DNA from: Archaeoglobaceae archaeon
GTDB taxonomy: Archaea > Halobacteriota > Archaeoglobi > Archaeoglobales > Archaeoglobaceae
Length of the DNA: 64,000 nucleotides
Direction: 5' to 3'
NCBI GenBank assembly: GCA_026986375.1
Contig: JALSOQ010000010.1
Location: forward strand, 26,998 to 90,997
The notes under the pieces are model-generated. The model was not told the origin of the DNA and searched no databases. It was given only the letters and a program-made list of their open reading frames with translations. The translations under genes and the position numbers were made by a program. This document shows positions 11,700 to 41,689 of the stretch, piece after piece; within the stretch, counting starts at the first letter, position 1, and each line of letters begins with the position of its first letter.

Positions 11700-12637
11700 T
11701 CGACTCCTCTCCCCCTGACGAACTTGACAATCGCACACAGAGCGGAGTATTGCAATAAGATTGTATGAACGAGCAGACCGAACGTTACTAAAACCTTTCT
11801 AAAGCTTCTGAACTCGATGAGCAGTAGAAGTGGGGCGAGCGATAGGAGGGGCAGGAGGATAGCTATGCAGTAAGTTAAAGTTAACGCGGAAAGCCAAGAA
11901 ATTTTAAAGCTAAGGTTTTTCGATGAGAAAACGCAATTCATATACCTCCAGAGTTGAAGTCCGCCGTAATACCACCTCTTCCTTTGAGAGATCAAATCCC
12001 TCCAGCTAATGGGTGCCTGCTCGTAAACCTTCGTGCTTTCTACGAATACGGCTTTGTATCCCATGCAGTGCATCCTCGTCGCGAAGTCCGCATCTTCCGT
12101 AATCGCGTCCTCGTTCAGCCTGTGCTTCATCAGAAGATCCGCCCTAAGAACGCCTATCAGACCGTTGAACTGCTTGAACCCCGACCTCTTCAGCAGGAAG
12201 TTTATCAGACGGTATTCAACCTCGACGGTCTCCGAAACCAAGTTCGTGGGATTCGAGATGAACCTCGGCGAGGATGCTATGTATGCGTTTCGATCTTCTT
12301 TCAAAGCCTCGACGCACTTTACGATGAAATCCCTTTCGGGACGGGAATCCACGTCGAATATCGCTATGTAATCGGGATCGAATTTCCTTAGGTAATCCAG
12401 AGCATCGTTTATAGCCCCAGCCCTCTTCCCCCTCGTGTCTCTCCTTTCCAAAACATCTACTCCCAACTCCCTAAGCTTTAAACCTCTGAGATCGTTCGAA
12501 TCTTTCCTATCGACGACGAATACTATCTTAAAATCGAATCCGTCGTAGTTCAGGGATAGAAGGTGTTTGGCGCAATCTACAACGATTTCCTCGGGTTCGA
12601 ACGGAGATACTGGAACTATTACCGCAACCTTACTCAT
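11657..12637 (-). CDS. glycosyltransferase family 2
   Basis: The VAVIVPV...E N-terminus, DVDSRPE (DxD-like), QRKRW motif and C-terminal TM helices fit GT2. Confidence 0.8.
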   Translation of the reverse strand: MSKVAVIVPVSPFEPEEIVVDCAKHLLSLNYDGFDFKIVFVVDRKDSNDLRGLKLRELGVDVLERRDTRGKRAGAINDALDYLRKFDPDYIAIFDVDSRPERDFIVKCVEALKEDRNAYIASSPRFISNPTNLVSETVEVEYRLINFLLKRSGFKQFNGLIGVLRADLLMKHRLNEDAITEDADFATRMHCMGYKAVFVESTKVYEQAPISWRDLISQRKRWYYGGLQLWRYMNCVFSSKNLSFKISWLSALTLTYCIAILLPLLSLAPLLLLIEFRSFRKVLVTFGLLVHTILLQYSALCAIVKFVRGRGVEWSPMKRDLRQNRC

Positions 12638-20166: not shown

Positions 20167-20250
20167 CGCCGGGGGTGGGATTCGAACCCACGCGTCCCTT
20201 ACGGGACACGGGCTCTCCAGGCCCGCGCCTTACCACTCGGCAACCCCGGC
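20167..20250 (-). tRNA. tRNA-Ser (anticodon GGA)
   Basis: Reverse complement folds as GCCGGGG/CCCCGGC acceptor, anticodon stem CGGGC/GCCCG with loop CUGGAGA, a long variable arm, and T arm GTGGG-TTCGAAT-CCCAC. No encoded CCA. Confidence 0.9.
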
Positions 20251-26064: not shown

Positions 26065-26100
26065 AACTTTTATAAGTTCGGCATCCAAACGATCTTAAGC

Positions 26101-26153
26101 CGATGATGAGCTAATCCGCACCTGAGCCGTGATGAGGCCTGTACGGACTGAGG
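26101..26153 (+). ncRNA. C/D box sRNA
   Basis: C ATGATGA 26103-26109, 12-nt guide, D' CTGA 26122-26125, 4-nt loop, C' TGATGA 26130-26135, 12-nt guide, D CTGA 26148-26151. Confidence 0.8.
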
Positions 26154-27211
26154 TCTATGACATCTATTTTCTTAAACTTGCAGAAGTCCTTAAGATCCCT
26201 CCTGTAGTCCCCGTATGCTAAAACGATGTGGTTTCCCAAGCTGTTCTCGACGAATTCATCGACGTCGAAGAAGGGTCTAACTTCCACCTGAGTTCTGCAG
26301 AGTCCTTTTTCGCTTAAGTTCCTCGTTATCTCTCCAAGAGCGATCAGCATTCTCTTTTTTCCGTATCTCGCCAACGTGACGACCTCCCTCCTCATTTTTC
26401 CCCTCACAGCCTTTCCTTTTCCCGATTCCGCATGGATGGTCATTTCGTATGATTCTACCATTGAAAGCGGGACGGTGCAGTGCGCAAGGACTATTCCGTC
26501 TATTCTGCAAACGTTGGCCATCCAGCAAGGTTTCCCCGTTATAGCCCTCAGAATCATCATCGTCAGTATGGCTCCGATGTCCCCTTCGCATCCGGCCGGA
26601 ATCTCTTCGTTAAGCTTTGCCATTGCCAGACAGGCGGTTTTACCGAATTCGAGCAGATCGAAGCACCTTACGGTTACTGCGGACAGTCTGTATTTCCTCA
26701 CGATATCCTTCAAAGCTTCGTAGATGTCTTTTCCGATCAGTTCGTCCATTCCTATCTCCACCACTTCCACGCCCAGATCATAGGCATCTTCATAGTCCGA
26801 GCTGAGCAACCACTCCGAAATACCCCCAACGACCCCGAGTCTTTGCTTCGAATTCAGAAAGTTGCAGATTCCGATGAACCTCGAAACGTGATCGAGGATC
26901 TCACTTCCTATCGGCGAATAGACGAGCTTTACCCTATCCCTGTAAACCGAATAAACCTCCAACGCGGAAGGGAGGGAGTTGTGATTTGGAAGAGCCCATA
27001 TCATTACGGGCTTTTCGGTGGACTCTATAACGTTCGCGATGATTTTCTCGGTTCCTCCGGTGGCCGGGACTATTATAACGCCATCCTCCACCTTTACTTC
27101 CTCGAATTCAGTCAGAAGGAGTGTTTTCATTCCCAGCAGAGATTCCACCCTCTCCTTGACCCCTCTTCCTATCTCAGCCTGCAGTTTCGACGAGACGACC
27201 AAGCAGAGCAT
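26111..27211 (-). CDS. hypothetical protein, possibly sugar (fucose/arabinose) isomerase-like
   Basis: 366-aa ORF with normal composition; the family assignment is only a weak impression. Its last 14 or so codons are antisense to the C/D sRNA at 26101-26153. Confidence 0.35.
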   Translation of the reverse strand: MLCLVVSSKLQAEIGRGVKERVESLLGMKTLLLTEFEEVKVEDGVIIVPATGGTEKIIANVIESTEKPVMIWALPNHNSLPSALEVYSVYRDRVKLVYSPIGSEILDHVSRFIGICNFLNSKQRLGVVGGISEWLLSSDYEDAYDLGVEVVEIGMDELIGKDIYEALKDIVRKYRLSAVTVRCFDLLEFGKTACLAMAKLNEEIPAGCEGDIGAILTMMILRAITGKPCWMANVCRIDGIVLAHCTVPLSMVESYEMTIHAESGKGKAVRGKMRREVVTLARYGKKRMLIALGEITRNLSEKGLCRTQVEVRPFFDVDEFVENSLGNHIVLAYGDYRRDLKDFCKFKKIDVIDLSPYRPHHGSGAD

Positions 27212-30274: not shown

Positions 30275-30306
30275 GATGTGTGGTATTCGTATCTGGAAAA
30301 ATCGTT

Positions 30307-30645
30307 TCAGGTGGCGAGACCGATAAGCGTCAGGATTATCATCGGAACTGCCGTGAAGAATGTCATGGCGTAGAATATCTGACTTTCGTAGCCCCTCCTC
30401 ATGGTGTGAACCACGGTTGTGAGGTGTATCAGGTATATTACCGTCGCGGCCATGAATAATACTGGCTCGGATTTCAGAAATGATGGTAGGATGCAGTGCA
30501 CGTAGAGAACGGTCGTGAATGCGGGAAGGGGTTTCAAATTTGCTCTATCGTCCCTCTTAATCGGTTTGAGTTTAATCTCCACTCTCTCGCCGCCGTAATA
30601 CCTAATCACACACCATTCGACGCTTTCGCATTTCGGGCACCTCAA
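30307..30645 (-). CDS. small membrane protein with an N-terminal CxxC (hypothetical)
   Basis: MRCPKCES start followed by two TM helices. ATGA-type overlap with the upstream small ORF. Confidence 0.35.
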   Translation of the reverse strand: MRCPKCESVEWCVIRYYGGERVEIKLKPIKRDDRANLKPLPAFTTVLYVHCILPSFLKSEPVLFMAATVIYLIHLTTVVHTMRRGYESQIFYAMTFFTAVPMIILTLIGLAT

Positions 30646-30893
30646 AAGCTTGTAGTACGTTTGGTGAGGTGATAGAACGGAGTCCGAAAAGTTCGGTTTG
30701 AAAGTGTGCCCTGTATTTTACCGTAAATATGTCTTATGAGCACCATCACTACGAATACAACGTAAGCGATGACCAACGGTTTCAGACTTTCTGGAAGCAC
30801 TATTGCCATGAAGATTGTTGGAGGAACTGCGAGGATGAAGGTCAAAAACATGAAGCGTAAAAGTGGATCAGCCATGAATCTGGATCTCATCAA
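30642..30893 (-). CDS. small membrane protein (hypothetical)
   Basis: 83 aa with two TM helices; translationally coupled to 30307-30645. Confidence 0.35.
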   Translation of the reverse strand: MMRSRFMADPLLRFMFLTFILAVPPTIFMAIVLPESLKPLVIAYVVFVVMVLIRHIYGKIQGTLSNRTFRTPFYHLTKRTTSF

Positions 30894-30970
30894 CGATATT
30901 TGAAACTTTCAGATACGCCCATTGCGATTATTAGATCGTGTTAAGTCTAATTTTCCGATTAAATCCTCAG

Positions 30971-31081
30971 CTAATGACAGTAAAATTTAAAACTTCCTGC
31001 TTTGGATTGTATTGCCAAAGAACATCGATTACTTCTTTTGTGTGCGCAAGGAAAAGGATTATCGCATATACACATTTTCAT
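30971..31081 (-). CDS. candidate 36-aa cysteine-rich small protein (MKMCICDNPFPCAHKRSNRCSLAIQSKAGSFKFYCH)
   Basis: Not in the ORF track (<60 aa). ATG at 31081 with GGAGGT 6 nt upstream, the same RBS type as the other island genes; TAG stop at 30971-30973. Confidence 0.25.
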   Translation of the reverse strand: MKMCICDNPFPCAHKRSNRCSLAIQSKAGSFKFYCH

Positions 31082-31128
31082 GCTTTAACCTCCTTAATTA
31101 TTTTTATTTTATAAAAATTTAAAAATAA

Positions 31129-32009
31129 TTATTTAGTTCGTGCATAATCACAGATGTCTCTTAGAGGGCATTCGGGACATTTTGGATCGTGTTCTTCACA
31201 CTACTTTCTTCCGACGTTCCAAAACAGTGTGTCAATTCTTGCGGGGAATTCTGGAAAGATGAATCTCGCAATAAGTTGAATATCCTTGTCTACTTGATCA
31301 GTTTTTCTATATTTCCAATACAGATACCATGGTATCCATCCTATATTTTTGAAAACTCTACTAGCGACTTTTCTAACGTGAACATCGATTGGAATGGGAA
31401 TGTATTCCTTACCTTCATCTGTAACTTTAAAGTTAGGTAGTTTTTCTTTAATTTGATCGAACCATGGGTGTCTCGGCATCAGACCATTTTCCCTGTATAT
31501 AAAATCTCTTACGAGAACGCTTGCATTCTTCTCGCCGATACCAGGTATATTTCTAAACATAAAGTATAGCTCTATGCAACTATATTCTCTGTTCTCAAAC
31601 ATAGTTATTAGGTGTTTGATTTTTGAAATTTTGAAATTAATGCTTTGTTTATATCCCTTGAAACGCCATTTATATAGTCCTCACAGTCTTTTTCAGAGCA
31701 TTTACTGGAAAACTTGTCAGAAAAATACTCCCTCACTAAGCTTTTGATATCTGCTGAAAGTATTTCATTTGGTTCTAAGCTTCCAATTCGTTCAAGAAGC
31801 CAATGTGGAAATTCAAATGCATGATCGGCACTTTTAAGCCCATATCTGTTGCATATGAAACCCAATAGCGGTGCAAAGTCGTAATTGCTTAAAGTTTCAT
31901 AAGCTTCTTTTTTCAAGTCCATCCAAGCTTCTTTACAAAATTCCTTTTCCCACTTTTCGCAGATTTTTCTAATCTCCTCTACCTTCGTCTTAAAATCCTC
32001 AAATTGCAC
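31129..32009 (-). pseudogene. endonuclease III-type HhH-GPD/[4Fe-4S] DNA glycosylase gene in three fragments. Probably a pseudogene; recoding is the alternative.
   Basis: Fragment 1 is 32009-31608 (N-terminal helices). TAA plus 2 nt and a frame change follow. Fragment 2 is 31602-31204 (IPGIGEKNASVL HhH with Lys, PIDVHVRKV Asp motif, ...FWNVGRK). An in-frame TAG (31203-31201) follows. Fragment 3 is CEEHDPKCPECPLRDICDYARTK (31200-31132), a perfect C-x6-C-x2-C-x5-C motif, then TAA. Confidence 0.6.
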
Positions 32010-32080
32010 TTTATCACCTCCACTAATTATTTAATTATTTTAATAAAAAATAAAGGTAAAATTAAAAATTTATATAAAAA

Positions 32081-32671
32081 TTAAATCATTGTTGGCTCCC
32101 AAAATGCAATCCAGACTTTTATCATTTTCTCGATAAGACTTTTTCTTTCAGATAGTAGTGGTCTTTCGGAATATTTCTCACCCAAGTATATCCTTAAACC
32201 TTCTCTACCAGTTTTAAGACTCAATCCTAACTTTCTCGCAATCTCTTCCATTCTTTCTTCTGGAATCTTCATTTTGGATTTGTCGATAATACCCCGAACT
32301 ATTCCGTATTTCTGTTTTACGAATATCTCATTGTTCTCGTCTGCCCATATGTCTTTAGCCTTTCTTGCGTTGAGGTAAGTAGATATGGATTTTGCTCCAC
32401 CTATCCATCCATCAATGTTCTTTTTCCCCCACCACATTTCAAATCTATATAATTTACCGTTTACATCCGCTAAGACATCCAAAACTTCCAAAATATTATC
32501 CAATGCCTGTTTTTTCTCTTCATTCGATAAAACAGCGTATGCCGGTTCTTTTTTCGTTTGCTTAATTTCGAGAATTTTTACATCTAATCTGCTATTACCT
32601 TCAGAAGATTTTTCATCCGTTTGTTGTATTATATAAATCCAAGCACCGCAGTTTGGACACCTTATTTTCAT
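32081..32671 (-). CDS. hypothetical protein with an N-terminal CxxC
   Basis: 196-aa ORF (MKIRCPNCGAW...) with GAGGTGA 7 nt upstream of the ATG. No recognisable domain. Confidence 0.5.
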   Translation of the reverse strand: MKIRCPNCGAWIYIIQQTDEKSSEGNSRLDVKILEIKQTKKEPAYAVLSNEEKKQALDNILEVLDVLADVNGKLYRFEMWWGKKNIDGWIGGAKSISTYLNARKAKDIWADENNEIFVKQKYGIVRGIIDKSKMKIPEERMEEIARKLGLSLKTGREGLRIYLGEKYSERPLLSERKSLIEKMIKVWIAFWEPTMI

Positions 32672-32811
32672 CTTTTTATCACCTCAAAATTACGTTGTAG
32701 AAAGCTAATTTAAATTTTTTGGTAGAAGATGATTAGAAGGTGTTAGTAAGGTAAGAGTAGATAATCTTTATTTAATAAAATCTAAAAATAAATTTAAAAA
32801 ATTTAAAAATT

Positions 32812-33486
32812 TTAAGGATCATTTAGAAGTCTTTTAACTTCTTCTATGAACGTTTTTGGATCGTTTTTAGCCAGATTTCTTAAACGCTCTCCATTTCTTG
32901 CTCTTATTTCGAAAAAGGCATCGATGTATGGGTAATCTTCTAATTTAACTTTAGGCAATAAACTTACTTTGAGCTCTTTTTCCAATTTCTTTAAACAAAC
33001 TTCCTTCGTCGATTTAGGTAGTTCCAAATTTTTGGGTAGTCTTAGCTTCCATAGTCTTACGAAATCGCATCCTACCCACGGTCCTATTTCTGCACCACCG
33101 AATCCGTGAGTTTTTCTTATTGCAGTGTAAAACTCCTCTGGATTTTTAATATGAGTTAAGTCGTCTCTTTGAAGGTTGTATATCTCATCTAATGCCAGTA
33201 TACTCTTCACACCATTGAGAAAACGTTTTCTGTTGAACTTTATCTTTGAAGCCAAGTCTTCCAGTTTGATATCGCTTAAACGCCTCAAATAACTTGGTAT
33301 GTTCCTTTTACTTCCAGCAATCGTTTCAAGTCTTTCAAAACATCTCTTAGCGAATTTATCACCTCTGCCAGTTGTAGTAAATAATGCATATAGCATGCCA
33401 TTGAAGGGAATATCCGAACTTTTCCACTTAAGACATTCATTTTTACCCAACAAAACCATCTTTTCAATAATATCCTTCGCATTCAT
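32812..33486 (-). CDS. hypothetical protein, possibly an HhH-GPD-like (DNA glycosylase superfamily) fold
   Basis: GGAGGTG lies 6 nt upstream of the ATG at 33486. RKTHGFGGAEIGPWVGCDFVR resembles a helix-hairpin-helix GxG loop preceded by a helical N-domain laid out like the neighbouring EndoIII-like gene. No FeS motif. Confidence 0.45.
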   Translation of the reverse strand: MNAKDIIEKMVLLGKNECLKWKSSDIPFNGMLYALFTTTGRGDKFAKRCFERLETIAGSKRNIPSYLRRLSDIKLEDLASKIKFNRKRFLNGVKSILALDEIYNLQRDDLTHIKNPEEFYTAIRKTHGFGGAEIGPWVGCDFVRLWKLRLPKNLELPKSTKEVCLKKLEKELKVSLLPKVKLEDYPYIDAFFEIRARNGERLRNLAKNDPKTFIEEVKRLLNDP

Positions 33487-33532
33487 AACCCCACCTCCCA
33501 ACCAATTTAAAGAAATTTTAAAATTAAAAATT

Positions 33533-34273
33533 TTAAAAATTTACTTCATTGGTAAACTTGGTTTTAGTTTTTATCTGCTCTATCTTTTCCAGAATCAGCG
33601 GAATGGTTAAGTTGATCGTTTTCGTCTCATCGGGCATGATCGTTTCGGTTTTAATCGCTTTTTCGCTATAACCTTGATATTCCGCAGAAACCCTTACAGT
33701 CATTGGATAATCTTCCCGATTAGTAAACTTGAACTCTATGTCTGGAAATCCCTGATGATAGAATGCGTTATAGAAAGCTAACGGATACGGTGTGTAAAAC
33801 ATCGTTTTGACTCCGAGTTTTGCTACACCGTAACCAAGTGGATAAAGAAACACTTCCTGAACCACAGAATCTAAAGTTTTACCGTTCTCTACCAGCTCTA
33901 TAACAACTCTGTACGTTTTAGCTTGATATTCAGGACTAAGAGTTAGATCAGCAGAATATGTTCCTCTCTTGTCAGCCTTCTTTACGCATTGTATTATAAC
34001 TTCATCAGTATCTGGGTCCATTAGTTTAAAGTAAAGTGTAACTGGTCGATCGGTTATGACTTCTACATTAGTTCTTACAGTGTCCTTATTTTTGTCAGCG
34101 TCTTCCGTATCGACAGCTTGGCAGTTGTAATTCTTAATGTGTGGCTTAGTTACTAAAGTCAAAGGTGTTACGGTTGGAGTAGCTATAGGTTTTACTTCTT
34201 CCTTCTCAGCACAGCCTACCAGCAATAAGGAAGTTAGGACTAAAATCAATATTGCTCGACTACCGAAAACCAT
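33533..34273 (-). CDS. putative secreted lipoprotein (hypothetical)
   Basis: Signal peptide plus lipobox-like LLLVGC, a Thr/Pro linker, then a beta-rich body. GAGGTG upstream; the ATG at 34273 is preferred over 34285. Confidence 0.6.
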   Translation of the reverse strand: MVFGSRAILILVLTSLLLVGCAEKEEVKPIATPTVTPLTLVTKPHIKNYNCQAVDTEDADKNKDTVRTNVEVITDRPVTLYFKLMDPDTDEVIIQCVKKADKRGTYSADLTLSPEYQAKTYRVVIELVENGKTLDSVVQEVFLYPLGYGVAKLGVKTMFYTPYPLAFYNAFYHQGFPDIEFKFTNREDYPMTVRVSAEYQGYSEKAIKTETIMPDETKTINLTIPLILEKIEQIKTKTKFTNEVNF

Positions 34274-34384
34274 TCTCTGCATCACCTCTCTAAATTTTTT
34301 TATTTAAATATTTTTATAAAAAAATAAAATAAAAATATTGGCAAAATATTTATGATTTTTGGGTGACTGACACAGTTTTAAAAG

Positions 34385-34665
34385 TTGGTACTGCCACCTT
34401 CTACTCTCACTGATCCTACTGGCATATCTCCCACGTTCGCCCCCGTCCCCGAATACTGCACACCGAAGTCGGGAATTTGGGGGAGTCCCCCATGCCATGA
34501 ACCACCGTGTGGACGGGCGTTGAAACCCGTCCCGATCGAACATTAGGACGGGGACGAACGCCCTTCTGCCCAACCGCCCACCACCCCCGTAAAAATCCCG
34601 GCCCGACTCGGGGGCCCACGTCGGGCCGTTCATCTCATGTTTGTCTTTGCGTATCGATGCATCCC
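34385..34665 (-). ncRNA. unclassified GC-rich structured RNA candidate (boundaries approximate)
   Basis: GC-rich block inside AT-rich DNA with no credible ORF. Helices: 34598-34606/34619-34627 (9 bp), 34510-34516/34525-34531 (7 bp), 34478-34490 hairpin, and long-range 34433-34447/34545-34559 (15 bp). The single non-Watson-Crick pair in the long helix is G:U only on the minus strand. Confidence 0.5.
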
Positions 34666-34822
34666 CACATCCGTTTGCATGTCCGAGTATATATATATTC
34701 ATGACATGATCTGAACATATATATTTATTCATATAAACGCATGCTTGCATTTATAAATGTATTTATTTTCGTCCGTAAATATAAAAAATGATATATATTT
34801 TGATTTAGAGTTCGTAAAAAAA

Positions 34823-35353
34823 CTACCCGAAATATAGCTCCTTATTTATCCAGGGGATCAAGGCCATCGTTACCGCTATCCTCGTAAGCTCTACCCTCGA
34901 AATGACGCCCTTCGTGAGGTAGTGAATGGCACCCATCCTTTCTCCGATGTTATCTATGCCCGTTATCTCCTCCATCACGTCTCCGACTTCCTTCCCCTTC
35001 AAAGCCTCCTTAACGACGCAAGGTGGAAACTCGAATCCCGGGCCGAATCCTATCGTGAACCTCTCGCCGTCGTAAACCACAGCGACTTGGAAGTCCATGT
35101 AGCCCGTCATCGTATTCTCCATACTGAATAATCCAGCTTCAACCCCTACGCTGAAGTCGCAGTCGTCAAAAGCCCTTATGGCTCTATTTATGGCTCCCCT
35201 AACGACGTCATAATCGAAGGGCTGGGGAGGAACTCCGGAATCGACCGATTTAGGTATAACTTCCACTTCACCGAAGAACCGCTCGAATGCGAGTCTTACC
35301 CCTTCAACCTTCGTCGGATTTTTCGAACCGACGACAACCCTCATCATGATCAA
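34823..35353 (-). CDS. non-canonical purine NTP phosphatase (inosine/xanthosine triphosphatase, YjjX/DUF84 family)
   Basis: The VVVGSKNPTKVEGVRLAF N-terminus is typical of the family; 176 aa. Confidence 0.7.
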   Translation of the reverse strand: MIMMRVVVGSKNPTKVEGVRLAFERFFGEVEVIPKSVDSGVPPQPFDYDVVRGAINRAIRAFDDCDFSVGVEAGLFSMENTMTGYMDFQVAVVYDGERFTIGFGPGFEFPPCVVKEALKGKEVGDVMEEITGIDNIGERMGAIHYLTKGVISRVELTRIAVTMALIPWINKELYFG

Positions 35354-41561: not shown

Positions 41562-41614
41562 TGTTACGATATTCTCACCAAAAATTTAAACTTGACGACA
41601 TTTGAAAAGATTAG

Positions 41615-41689
41615 CGGACCCGGCGGGATTTGAACCCGCGACCTTGGGCTTAGGAGGCCCACGCCCTATCCAAGCTAGGCTACGGGTCC
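41615..41689 (-). tRNA. tRNA-Arg (anticodon CCU)
   Basis: Reverse complement folds as GGACCCG/CGGGTCC acceptor, anticodon stem TGGGC/GCCCA with loop CUCCUAA, and T arm GCGGG-TTCAAAT-CCCGC. No encoded CCA. Confidence 0.9.

Follow-up and report, generated by a model that had tools for sequence, protein, structure and literature searches.

Several kinds of described RNAs share features with a block of DNA at positions 34385-34665 of the window, i.e., of the whole 64-kb stretch that was analyzed. Klein, Misulovin and Eddy (cited in PMC3150283) are said to have found stable, G+C-rich RNA genes, the Hgc RNAs, in 2002 with composition screens in hyperthermophiles. Like the Hgc RNAs, the block, which is intergenic, non-coding and strongly folding, forms a local G+C peak in the A+T-rich DNA of a hyperthermophile and is accompanied by archaeal promoter-like and oligo-T signals. 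Unlike them, it matched neither HgcC, HgcE, HgcF or HgcG nor any other Rfam model, no homologs were found in the searches described below, and it lies in strain-specific foreign DNA and not in conserved chromosome. Archaeal RNase P RNA is comparable in length (about 240-290 nt), in G+C content (0.60-0.63) and in fold z-score, and the GGGGGACUCCCCC of the block loosely recalls the CR-I region. However, the block lacks the GGAAAGUCC motif and was not matched by any RNase P model.

Structured non-coding RNAs of 150-300 nt at one end of an insertion are also known from mobile elements, i.e., the omega RNA of TnpB/IscB or HEARO, the bridge RNA of IS110, and the msr-msd RNA of retrons. In contrast to these systems, no TnpB, IscB, IS110 recombinase or reverse transcriptase was recognized in the island that contains the block, no HEARO or other Rfam model matched, and the 5' end of the proposed RNA would lie about 140 nt inside the junction of the insertion. 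Small trans-acting RNAs can start with an unstructured seed, which is followed by a terminal hairpin and a U-tail. The first 77 nt of the proposed RNA (34667-34591) would have the same order of elements, namely an open leader (37 nt), a hairpin (13 bp) and a U5 tract. However, the complementarity to the translation-start regions of the island was not outlying, and such an RNA would not account for the large core domain farther downstream. To our knowledge, very few structured RNAs have been described from archaeal mobile or variable regions.

The host belongs to the Archaeoglobaceae and has not been cultured, and the block of about 280 nt, which is G+C-rich, non-coding and strongly folding, lies at one end of a strain-specific piece of foreign DNA in its genome. 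A scan with 150-nt windows gave a mean G+C content of 0.48 for the 64 kb (standard deviation 0.058), and 34385-34665 was the only place at which at least 0.62 was reached, with a peak of 0.66. With 200-nt windows the values were up to 0.60 in the block versus 0.26-0.40 in the flanks. The block has 62-66% G+C versus about 33% in its surroundings, the DNA on both sides consists of 80-90% A+T, and (TA)n tracts adjoin it. The original prediction had described a G+C-rich block of about 270 nt within A+T-rich DNA, and the scan verified this description.

The prediction had also taken the local G+C enrichment as the signature of a structural RNA. In agreement with this, when the related Archaeoglobaceae loci with an overall G+C content of at most 0.50 (those before L039-L043) were screened, a single further 150-nt block reached 0.62 G+C, and this was the gene of an RNase P RNA (L015, 5477-5719, minus strand). 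This gene scored 199 bits, adjoins a tRNA in a related MAG, and was used as positive control. The loci L039-L043 contained no G+C-rich window at a cut-off of 0.60, except for one window of 0.61 in L040. The RNase P control and the screens attributed to Klein, Misulovin and Eddy (2002) are the reasons for assuming that, in the A+T-rich DNA of hyperthermophiles, a high G+C content is kept only where an RNA must stay folded.

The codon-phase G+C content of the block was flat (0.63/0.61/0.58), and that of the adjacent NTPase gene was 0.53/0.37/0.62. The three ORFs that cross the block (34304-34750, 34416-34619 and 34507-34704) had been regarded as nonsense, and a further ORF is present on the plus strand (34385-34546). 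The ORF at 34304-34750 comprises 148 aa, was annotated by gene callers in the near-identical public assemblies L001 and L002, and encodes a product rich in G, R and P. It matched only itself among 5.8 billion proteins, and only itself and a tandem-repeat artefact of 1033 aa (P0144) among 1.84 billion representative proteins that were scored exhaustively. Searches of Pfam, PHROG and PADLOC gave no match. The block is non-coding, and with its flat codon-phase G+C content and a 148-aa ORF devoid of genuine homologs the earlier verdict on the ORFs was upheld.

The folding energy was compared with that of dinucleotide shuffles at 37 °C and at 75 °C, the latter being nearer to the growth temperature expected for Archaeoglobaceae. 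At 37 °C the z-scores of the whole block were marginal (-1.6 to -1.8 for the minus strand, -0.5 for the plus strand). At 75 °C they were -3.0 and -2.5, respectively, i.e., the energy was below that of the shuffles, which is the general criterion for a structured non-coding RNA. For a core of 138 nt the values at 75 °C were -4.0 (minus) and -2.9 (plus), the minus-strand core reached -3.7 at 37 °C, and not one of 150 shuffles of its minus strand was equally stable. The RNase P RNA control from the related archaeon had a z-score of -3.3 at 75 °C, and the two coding controls had z-scores of -0.2 and -0.8, the second of them with 60% G+C. The block is significantly structured, on a par with a genuine RNase P RNA at 75 °C.

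All helices of the original prediction were found by direct reading of the sequence, but each of their coordinates was one base too low. The features are described here in the direction of the minus strand, to which all of them are assigned. The body of the proposed RNA would comprise about 285 nt (34385-34667), as suggested by composition, the lack of codon periodicity, the fold z-score at 75 °C and the lack of an Rfam match. Its start is placed near 34667. The TATA-like stretch that had been seen at about 34687-34697 is present as TATATATATA at 34688-34697, about 25 nt upstream of the G+C-rich part, and is a putative TATA box. The leader, from about 34667 onward, comprises about 37 nt and is predicted to be open. 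It is followed by hairpin 1 (34599-34628), in which CGGCCCGAC (34599-34607) pairs with GTCGGGCCG (34620-34628) in nine Watson-Crick base pairs, extended by a G/A mismatch and three more base pairs, one of them U-G, below a GCCC loop. Three nucleotides past the hairpin, after GGA, a terminator-like U5 tract follows (34591-34595). Oligo-T acts as a terminator of archaeal transcription, and hairpin 1 together with the U5 tract could stop transcription within the proposed RNA after about 75 nt. Between hairpin 1 and the core lies a run of G-tracts, GGGGGUGGUGGGCGGUUGGGCAGAAGGG (34562-34589), which fits the G-quadruplex motif and might be a G-quadruplex or a single-stranded linker.

The core domain, delimited by fold prediction and the shuffle test, comprises 129 nt (34433-34561) with a 17-bp closing helix around three small hairpins. 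On the level of the plus strand, 34434-34448 pairs with 34546-34560 except for one C:A mismatch, at which the minus strand has G:U. With two further G-U pairs at its ends, the minus-strand helix extends to 17 uninterrupted base pairs (34545-34561 with 34433-34449), 14 of which are Watson-Crick and three G-U pairs. This length was attained in one of 300 dinucleotide shuffles, in contrast to 12 bp on the plus strand, which were equalled in 40 of 300. In the minimum-energy structure hairpin 2 (34510-34533) is formed by GGACGGGU and GCCCGUCC with a 6-nt loop and corresponds to GGACGGG (34511-34517) and CCCGTCC (34526-34532) on the plus strand. Hairpin 3 (34478-34492) reads UGGGGG-ACU-CCCCCA and corresponds to GGGGG-AGT-CCCCC (34479-34491) on the plus strand. 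The last hairpin, CCG-ACUU-CGG (34463-34472), is weak. The core is followed by a tail of about 50 nt and by the first T-tract past the block, a T4 (34383-34380), at which the 3' end is tentatively placed; farther on, at about 34315-34335, there are longer tracts, a T5 and a T7. The 7-mer GGACGGG/CCCGTCC occurs eleven times in the whole window, and four of these copies lie in the block within a stretch of 110 bp. Due to the four copies, hairpin 2 and the long helix can swap their partners (1:2/3:4 versus 2:3/1:4), and the arrangement would suit a conformational switch, a hairpin duplicated in tandem, or sites that act on the level of DNA.

The original prediction had assigned the transcript to the minus strand, and this assignment was supported in part. 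The C:A versus G:U asymmetry was seen again, the folding energy was -115 kcal/mol for the minus strand versus -90 kcal/mol for the plus strand, five helix positions pair solely as G-U on the minus strand, and the z-scores of this strand were slightly better. However, significant structure was found on the plus strand as well, and the composition of a G-rich strand is by itself enough to yield additional G-U pairs, and, thus, the strand assignment is weak. Because of the structure on the plus strand (-2.5 and -2.9), a DNA-level element or an RNA from the opposite strand also have to be considered.

Known RNA classes were searched with Rfam 15 (4227 families). At the gathering score nothing was found in the block, although the models for RNase P, SRP, tRNA, introns and ribozymes were included, and the same scan of the whole window recovered two tRNAs and one C/D box RNA elsewhere. 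A permissive scan (E up to 10) of 34250-34800, and also of the island, gave only matches at chance level, the best being BjrC80 with 20 bits versus a threshold of 80 bits, and mir-466/297 on a (TA)n tract. Archaeal RNase P RNA (RF00373, clan CL00002) was not matched at E up to 10, and the same tool scored the control in L015 as given above. The covariance model of archaeal SRP RNA (RF01857) did not match either. ARAGORN and RF00005 placed the only tRNAs of the window at 20167-20250 and 41614-41689, and a tRNA or a tRNA-derived att fragment was rejected. The same applies to C/D and H/ACA guide RNAs, for which no Rfam match was obtained in the block; hairpin 2 is followed by ACA, but an internal pocket or a K-turn was not seen by eye. 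Self-cleaving ribozymes, group I/II introns, HEARO/omega RNA and riboswitches gave only chance-level matches with all Rfam 15 models. The earlier failure to fit the block to RNase P, SRP, tRNA, C/D or H/ACA architectures was, thus, corroborated by the Rfam scans and by ARAGORN, and none of the known families accounts for the block. The C/D box guide RNA of the window is a snoPyro_CD (47.5 bits) at 26099-26154 on the plus strand.

Further candidates were rejected on other grounds. A MITE or IS element would fit the inverted repeat of 15-17 bp, but a flanking duplication was not found, and nhmmer detected no second copy of the block in the 64-kb window or in 43 related loci. A covariance model of the core found only itself in 31 of these sources (463 kb). 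The window contains no CRISPR array with which an RNA mimic of a CRISPR repeat could be compared. Antisense pairing of the leader, the tail or the G-tract with the starts of island genes was not outstanding, as the island genes were no outliers among 68 genes, and a complementarity of 18 nt to 32731-32748 is at chance level by our own estimate. A syntenic host RNA was rejected because the entire segment is absent from the sibling strains.

The original prediction had suggested that homologs of the block be collected from Archaeoglobi genomes, plasmids and viruses. No homolog was found with nhmmer, blastn and tblastx in 43 loci of Archaeoglobaceae and others, or with blastn in phages and plasmids. 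Six back-translated patterns of the open frame of the block found no homolog in IMG/VR and the JGI metagenome contigs, and two DNA patterns retrieved only chance matches in G+C-rich contigs from IMG/VR. The near-identical assemblies L001 and L002 (ENA, Logan) have zero substitutions in the block and are uninformative on its conservation.

The extent of the foreign DNA was delimited by comparison with the loci L039, L040, L027, L031 and L038. The window has its sequence in common with L039 up to TAGTTTTTTTACGAACTCT, which ends at 34807 and directly precedes the right junction, and the sequence shared with L040 resumes at about 30912-30950 and continues downward. Therefore, the region of about 30950-34806 (minus strand) is a strain-specific, A+T-rich insertion of about 3.9 kb with about 33% G+C, which includes the block at its NTPase-proximal end and contains ORFs of 246, 224, 196, 133, 133 and 36 aa. 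The placement of the block within an A+T-rich island was, thus, confirmed, and synteny shows that it was acquired horizontally, together with the insertion.

The insertion occupies a hypervariable hot spot of the Archaeoglobaceae between an NTPase_I-T gene and a radical-SAM (DUF1848-like) gene (window 30275-34822; loci L027-L043). The two genes abut and the site is empty in L031, L032 and L038, whose NTPase is about 80% identical to that of the window. In L027-L030 (91% identity) the site holds a PIN toxin and its antitoxin (VapBC-type), and in L034-L035 (81% identity) an antitoxin-sized ORF. In L040-L043, whose NTPase is very close by eye, a gene for a 953-aa SF1 helicase is present, beside which a 143-aa ORF was seen in L040, the sole contig long enough to show it. 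In L039, with an NTPase that differs at three residues by eye, the site holds a small membrane ORF.

The proteins of the island are orphans. No homologs were found in Pfam, PHROGs, PADLOC and NCBIfam, in IMG/VR, in plasmids and phages (tblastn), or in the JGI metagenomes, which were searched with a concatenated query and six patterns, two of them on junctions. Apart from the near-identical strain, they are singletons in clustering at 90% identity. Single-sequence AlphaFold models of the 224-aa and the 196-aa protein had pLDDT values of 45 and 47 and were too poor for fold searches. In the 224-aa ORF (32812-33486) a similar helix-hairpin-helix-like GFGG motif was noticed by eye, but the ORF had no database match. 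The two adjoining 133-aa ORFs (31201-32009, minus strand) resemble one split gene for an HhH-GPD (Ogg-type) DNA glycosylase-like protein, with faint matches to TIGR03252 (E 0.006), PRK01229 (E 0.13) and, across the junction, the PDB entry 3fhf (E 0.06). Two ORFs of 83 and 100 aa (30307-30893, minus strand) together are a copy, disrupted by a frameshift, of a 195-aa gene that is intact in L040 (12055-12642) and encodes a zinc-ribbon membrane protein; the DNA identity across this region is 86%. The split HhH-GPD-like gene and the frameshifted 195-aa gene are signs of island decay.

The explanation that we prefer, albeit tentatively and with slightly less than even confidence, is that the block is an independently transcribed, heat-stable minus-strand RNA that is carried by the island and belongs to no known family. 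From the sequence we infer its transcription, its strand, both of its ends and any role it may have. The RNA gene would be a stand-alone unit with the TATA-type promoter TATATATATA and a start near 34667, and the RNA would end at the T-tracts from 34383 downwards. It would consist of the unstructured leader, the very stable 13-bp hairpin, the G-rich linker and the 129-nt domain with its 17-bp closing helix. The gene would have arrived as cargo of the 3.9-kb A+T-rich insertion at the hypervariable site downstream of the NTPase gene, and its high G+C content within A+T-rich DNA of a hyperthermophile would be required for the RNA to remain folded. This explanation is weakened by hairpin 1 with its U5 tract in the interior of the proposed RNA, by the structure of both strands, by the marginal z-scores of the whole block at 37 °C, and by the repeated 7-mer, which could be the relic of a duplication. 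As for its role, a partner or regulator of the orphan proteins of the island could be envisaged rather than a housekeeping RNA of the host.

If the block is transcribed, it would represent a new RNA family without a relative in Rfam, and an uncultured, hyperthermophilic archaeon would carry it on a mobile accessory island. It would be of a known general kind, i.e., an orphan G+C-rich stable RNA of hyperthermophiles, at an unusual address, i.e., on a mobile hot-spot island. Elsewhere this hot spot holds toxin-antitoxin or helicase modules, and a structured RNA in it would suggest an accessory function that is based on RNA. A bolder version, which we consider improbable, sees in the block the first representative of a new, heat-stable family of structured RNAs. 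These RNAs would be cargo of archaeal variable or defence-type hot spots and would be partners of the orphan HhH-GPD-like and zinc-ribbon proteins of the island in an RNA-protein accessory system. We know of no described counterpart of such a system. For the time being the block is an orphan of a single lineage and a candidate, the value of which is that its coordinates, its proposed strand and its predicted ends are clearly delimited.

The first alternative is that the block is an inert remnant, i.e., a foreign G+C-rich fragment, derived, e.g., from a decayed structural RNA or from other donor DNA, that came along with the insertion and has no present function. This alternative is unlikely, but it deserves to be taken seriously. 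It would agree with the orphan status of the block in every search, with an island made entirely of orphan ORFs, and with the decay of the island seen in the split and the frameshifted gene. On the other hand, at 75 °C the folding of the block reaches the significance seen for a real RNase P RNA, and TATA-like and T-rich signals frame the block cleanly. In addition, an unselected stretch with 62-66% G+C would be expected to erode in DNA with 33% G+C.

The inverted repeats could also act on the level of DNA, as protein-binding or cruciform sites of a former plasmid or virus, with a role in its replication, recombination or transfer; we consider this quite unlikely. Four of the eleven 7-mer copies of the window within 110 bp, the significant folding on both strands, the location of the block at the very end of the insertion, and the adjoining (TA)n tracts, which are suited to unwinding, would all be in line with such a cis element. 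However, no recognizable Rep, Orc, integrase or relaxase is encoded in the island, and direct repeats or an att-like duplication were not found at its flanks. The symmetry of DNA also does not predict the asymmetry that was observed, i.e., that five G-U-only positions make the helices of the minus strand longer. Furthermore, as described above, the nhmmer search of the window and the 43 loci gave no second copy, and the covariance model found only the block itself.

A cis-acting function in transcription is somewhat less likely still. The block could be a long, structured 5' leader of the lipoprotein mRNA (gene at 33533-34273), or an insulator in which the hairpin and the U5 tract terminate read-through from the mdh-NTPase operon into the island. 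The block and the lipoprotein gene have the same orientation and are 100 nt apart, with the block upstream, and the hairpin with the U5 tract is terminator-like. However, downstream of the block the lipoprotein gene possesses an A+T-rich promoter-type motif and a Shine-Dalgarno sequence of its own, which argues that the block is a separate unit and not the leader of this gene. This motif and the T5 and T7 tracts lie between the block and the start codon of the lipoprotein gene, a T7 tract already ends the NTPase gene, and the 129-nt core domain is not explained by a simple terminator. Finally, that the 148-aa ORF (34304-34750) is a real gene is highly improbable, because its call as a gene in L001 and L002 and the one frame that is open across the entire block are outweighed by the lack of a codon-position G+C periodicity, the G/R/P-rich product, the lack of Pfam, PHROG and PADLOC matches and, the repeat artefact aside, of homologs among the 5.8 billion and 1.84 billion proteins, and by a chance of about one in three, by our own estimate, that some frame is open over 93 codons at the G+C content of the block.

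Several minor observations were made on the island and its surroundings. An A+T-rich motif of 30-37 nt recurs in intergenic positions at 31102-31134, 32035-32071, 32767-32803, 33501-33533 and 34303-34339. It is found upstream of the genes for the lipoprotein, the 224-aa, the 196-aa and the first 133-aa protein as well as upstream of the 36-aa ORF, but not upstream of the second 133-aa ORF. Each copy precedes a strong ribosome-binding site of the GGAGGTGA type, and the motif probably reflects promoters of a common design in the foreign DNA. The 36-aa ORF is located at the far end of the insertion (30971-31081, minus strand), is cysteine-rich, begins with MKMCICDNPFPCAHKRSNRC, and has the ribosome-binding site AAGGAGGT.

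In L040 a duplicate of the first approximately 45 nt of the radical-SAM gene adjoins the cargo (11930-11985), and it may be a footprint of the entry of the cargo into the hot spot. The NTPase gene follows the malate dehydrogenase gene (mdh) here and in the closest relatives, with the junction at window position 35350. In more distant Archaeoglobaceae the NTPase gene follows the adenylosuccinate synthetase gene, and unrelated genes follow mdh. This difference marks a rearrangement breakpoint directly at the hot spot.
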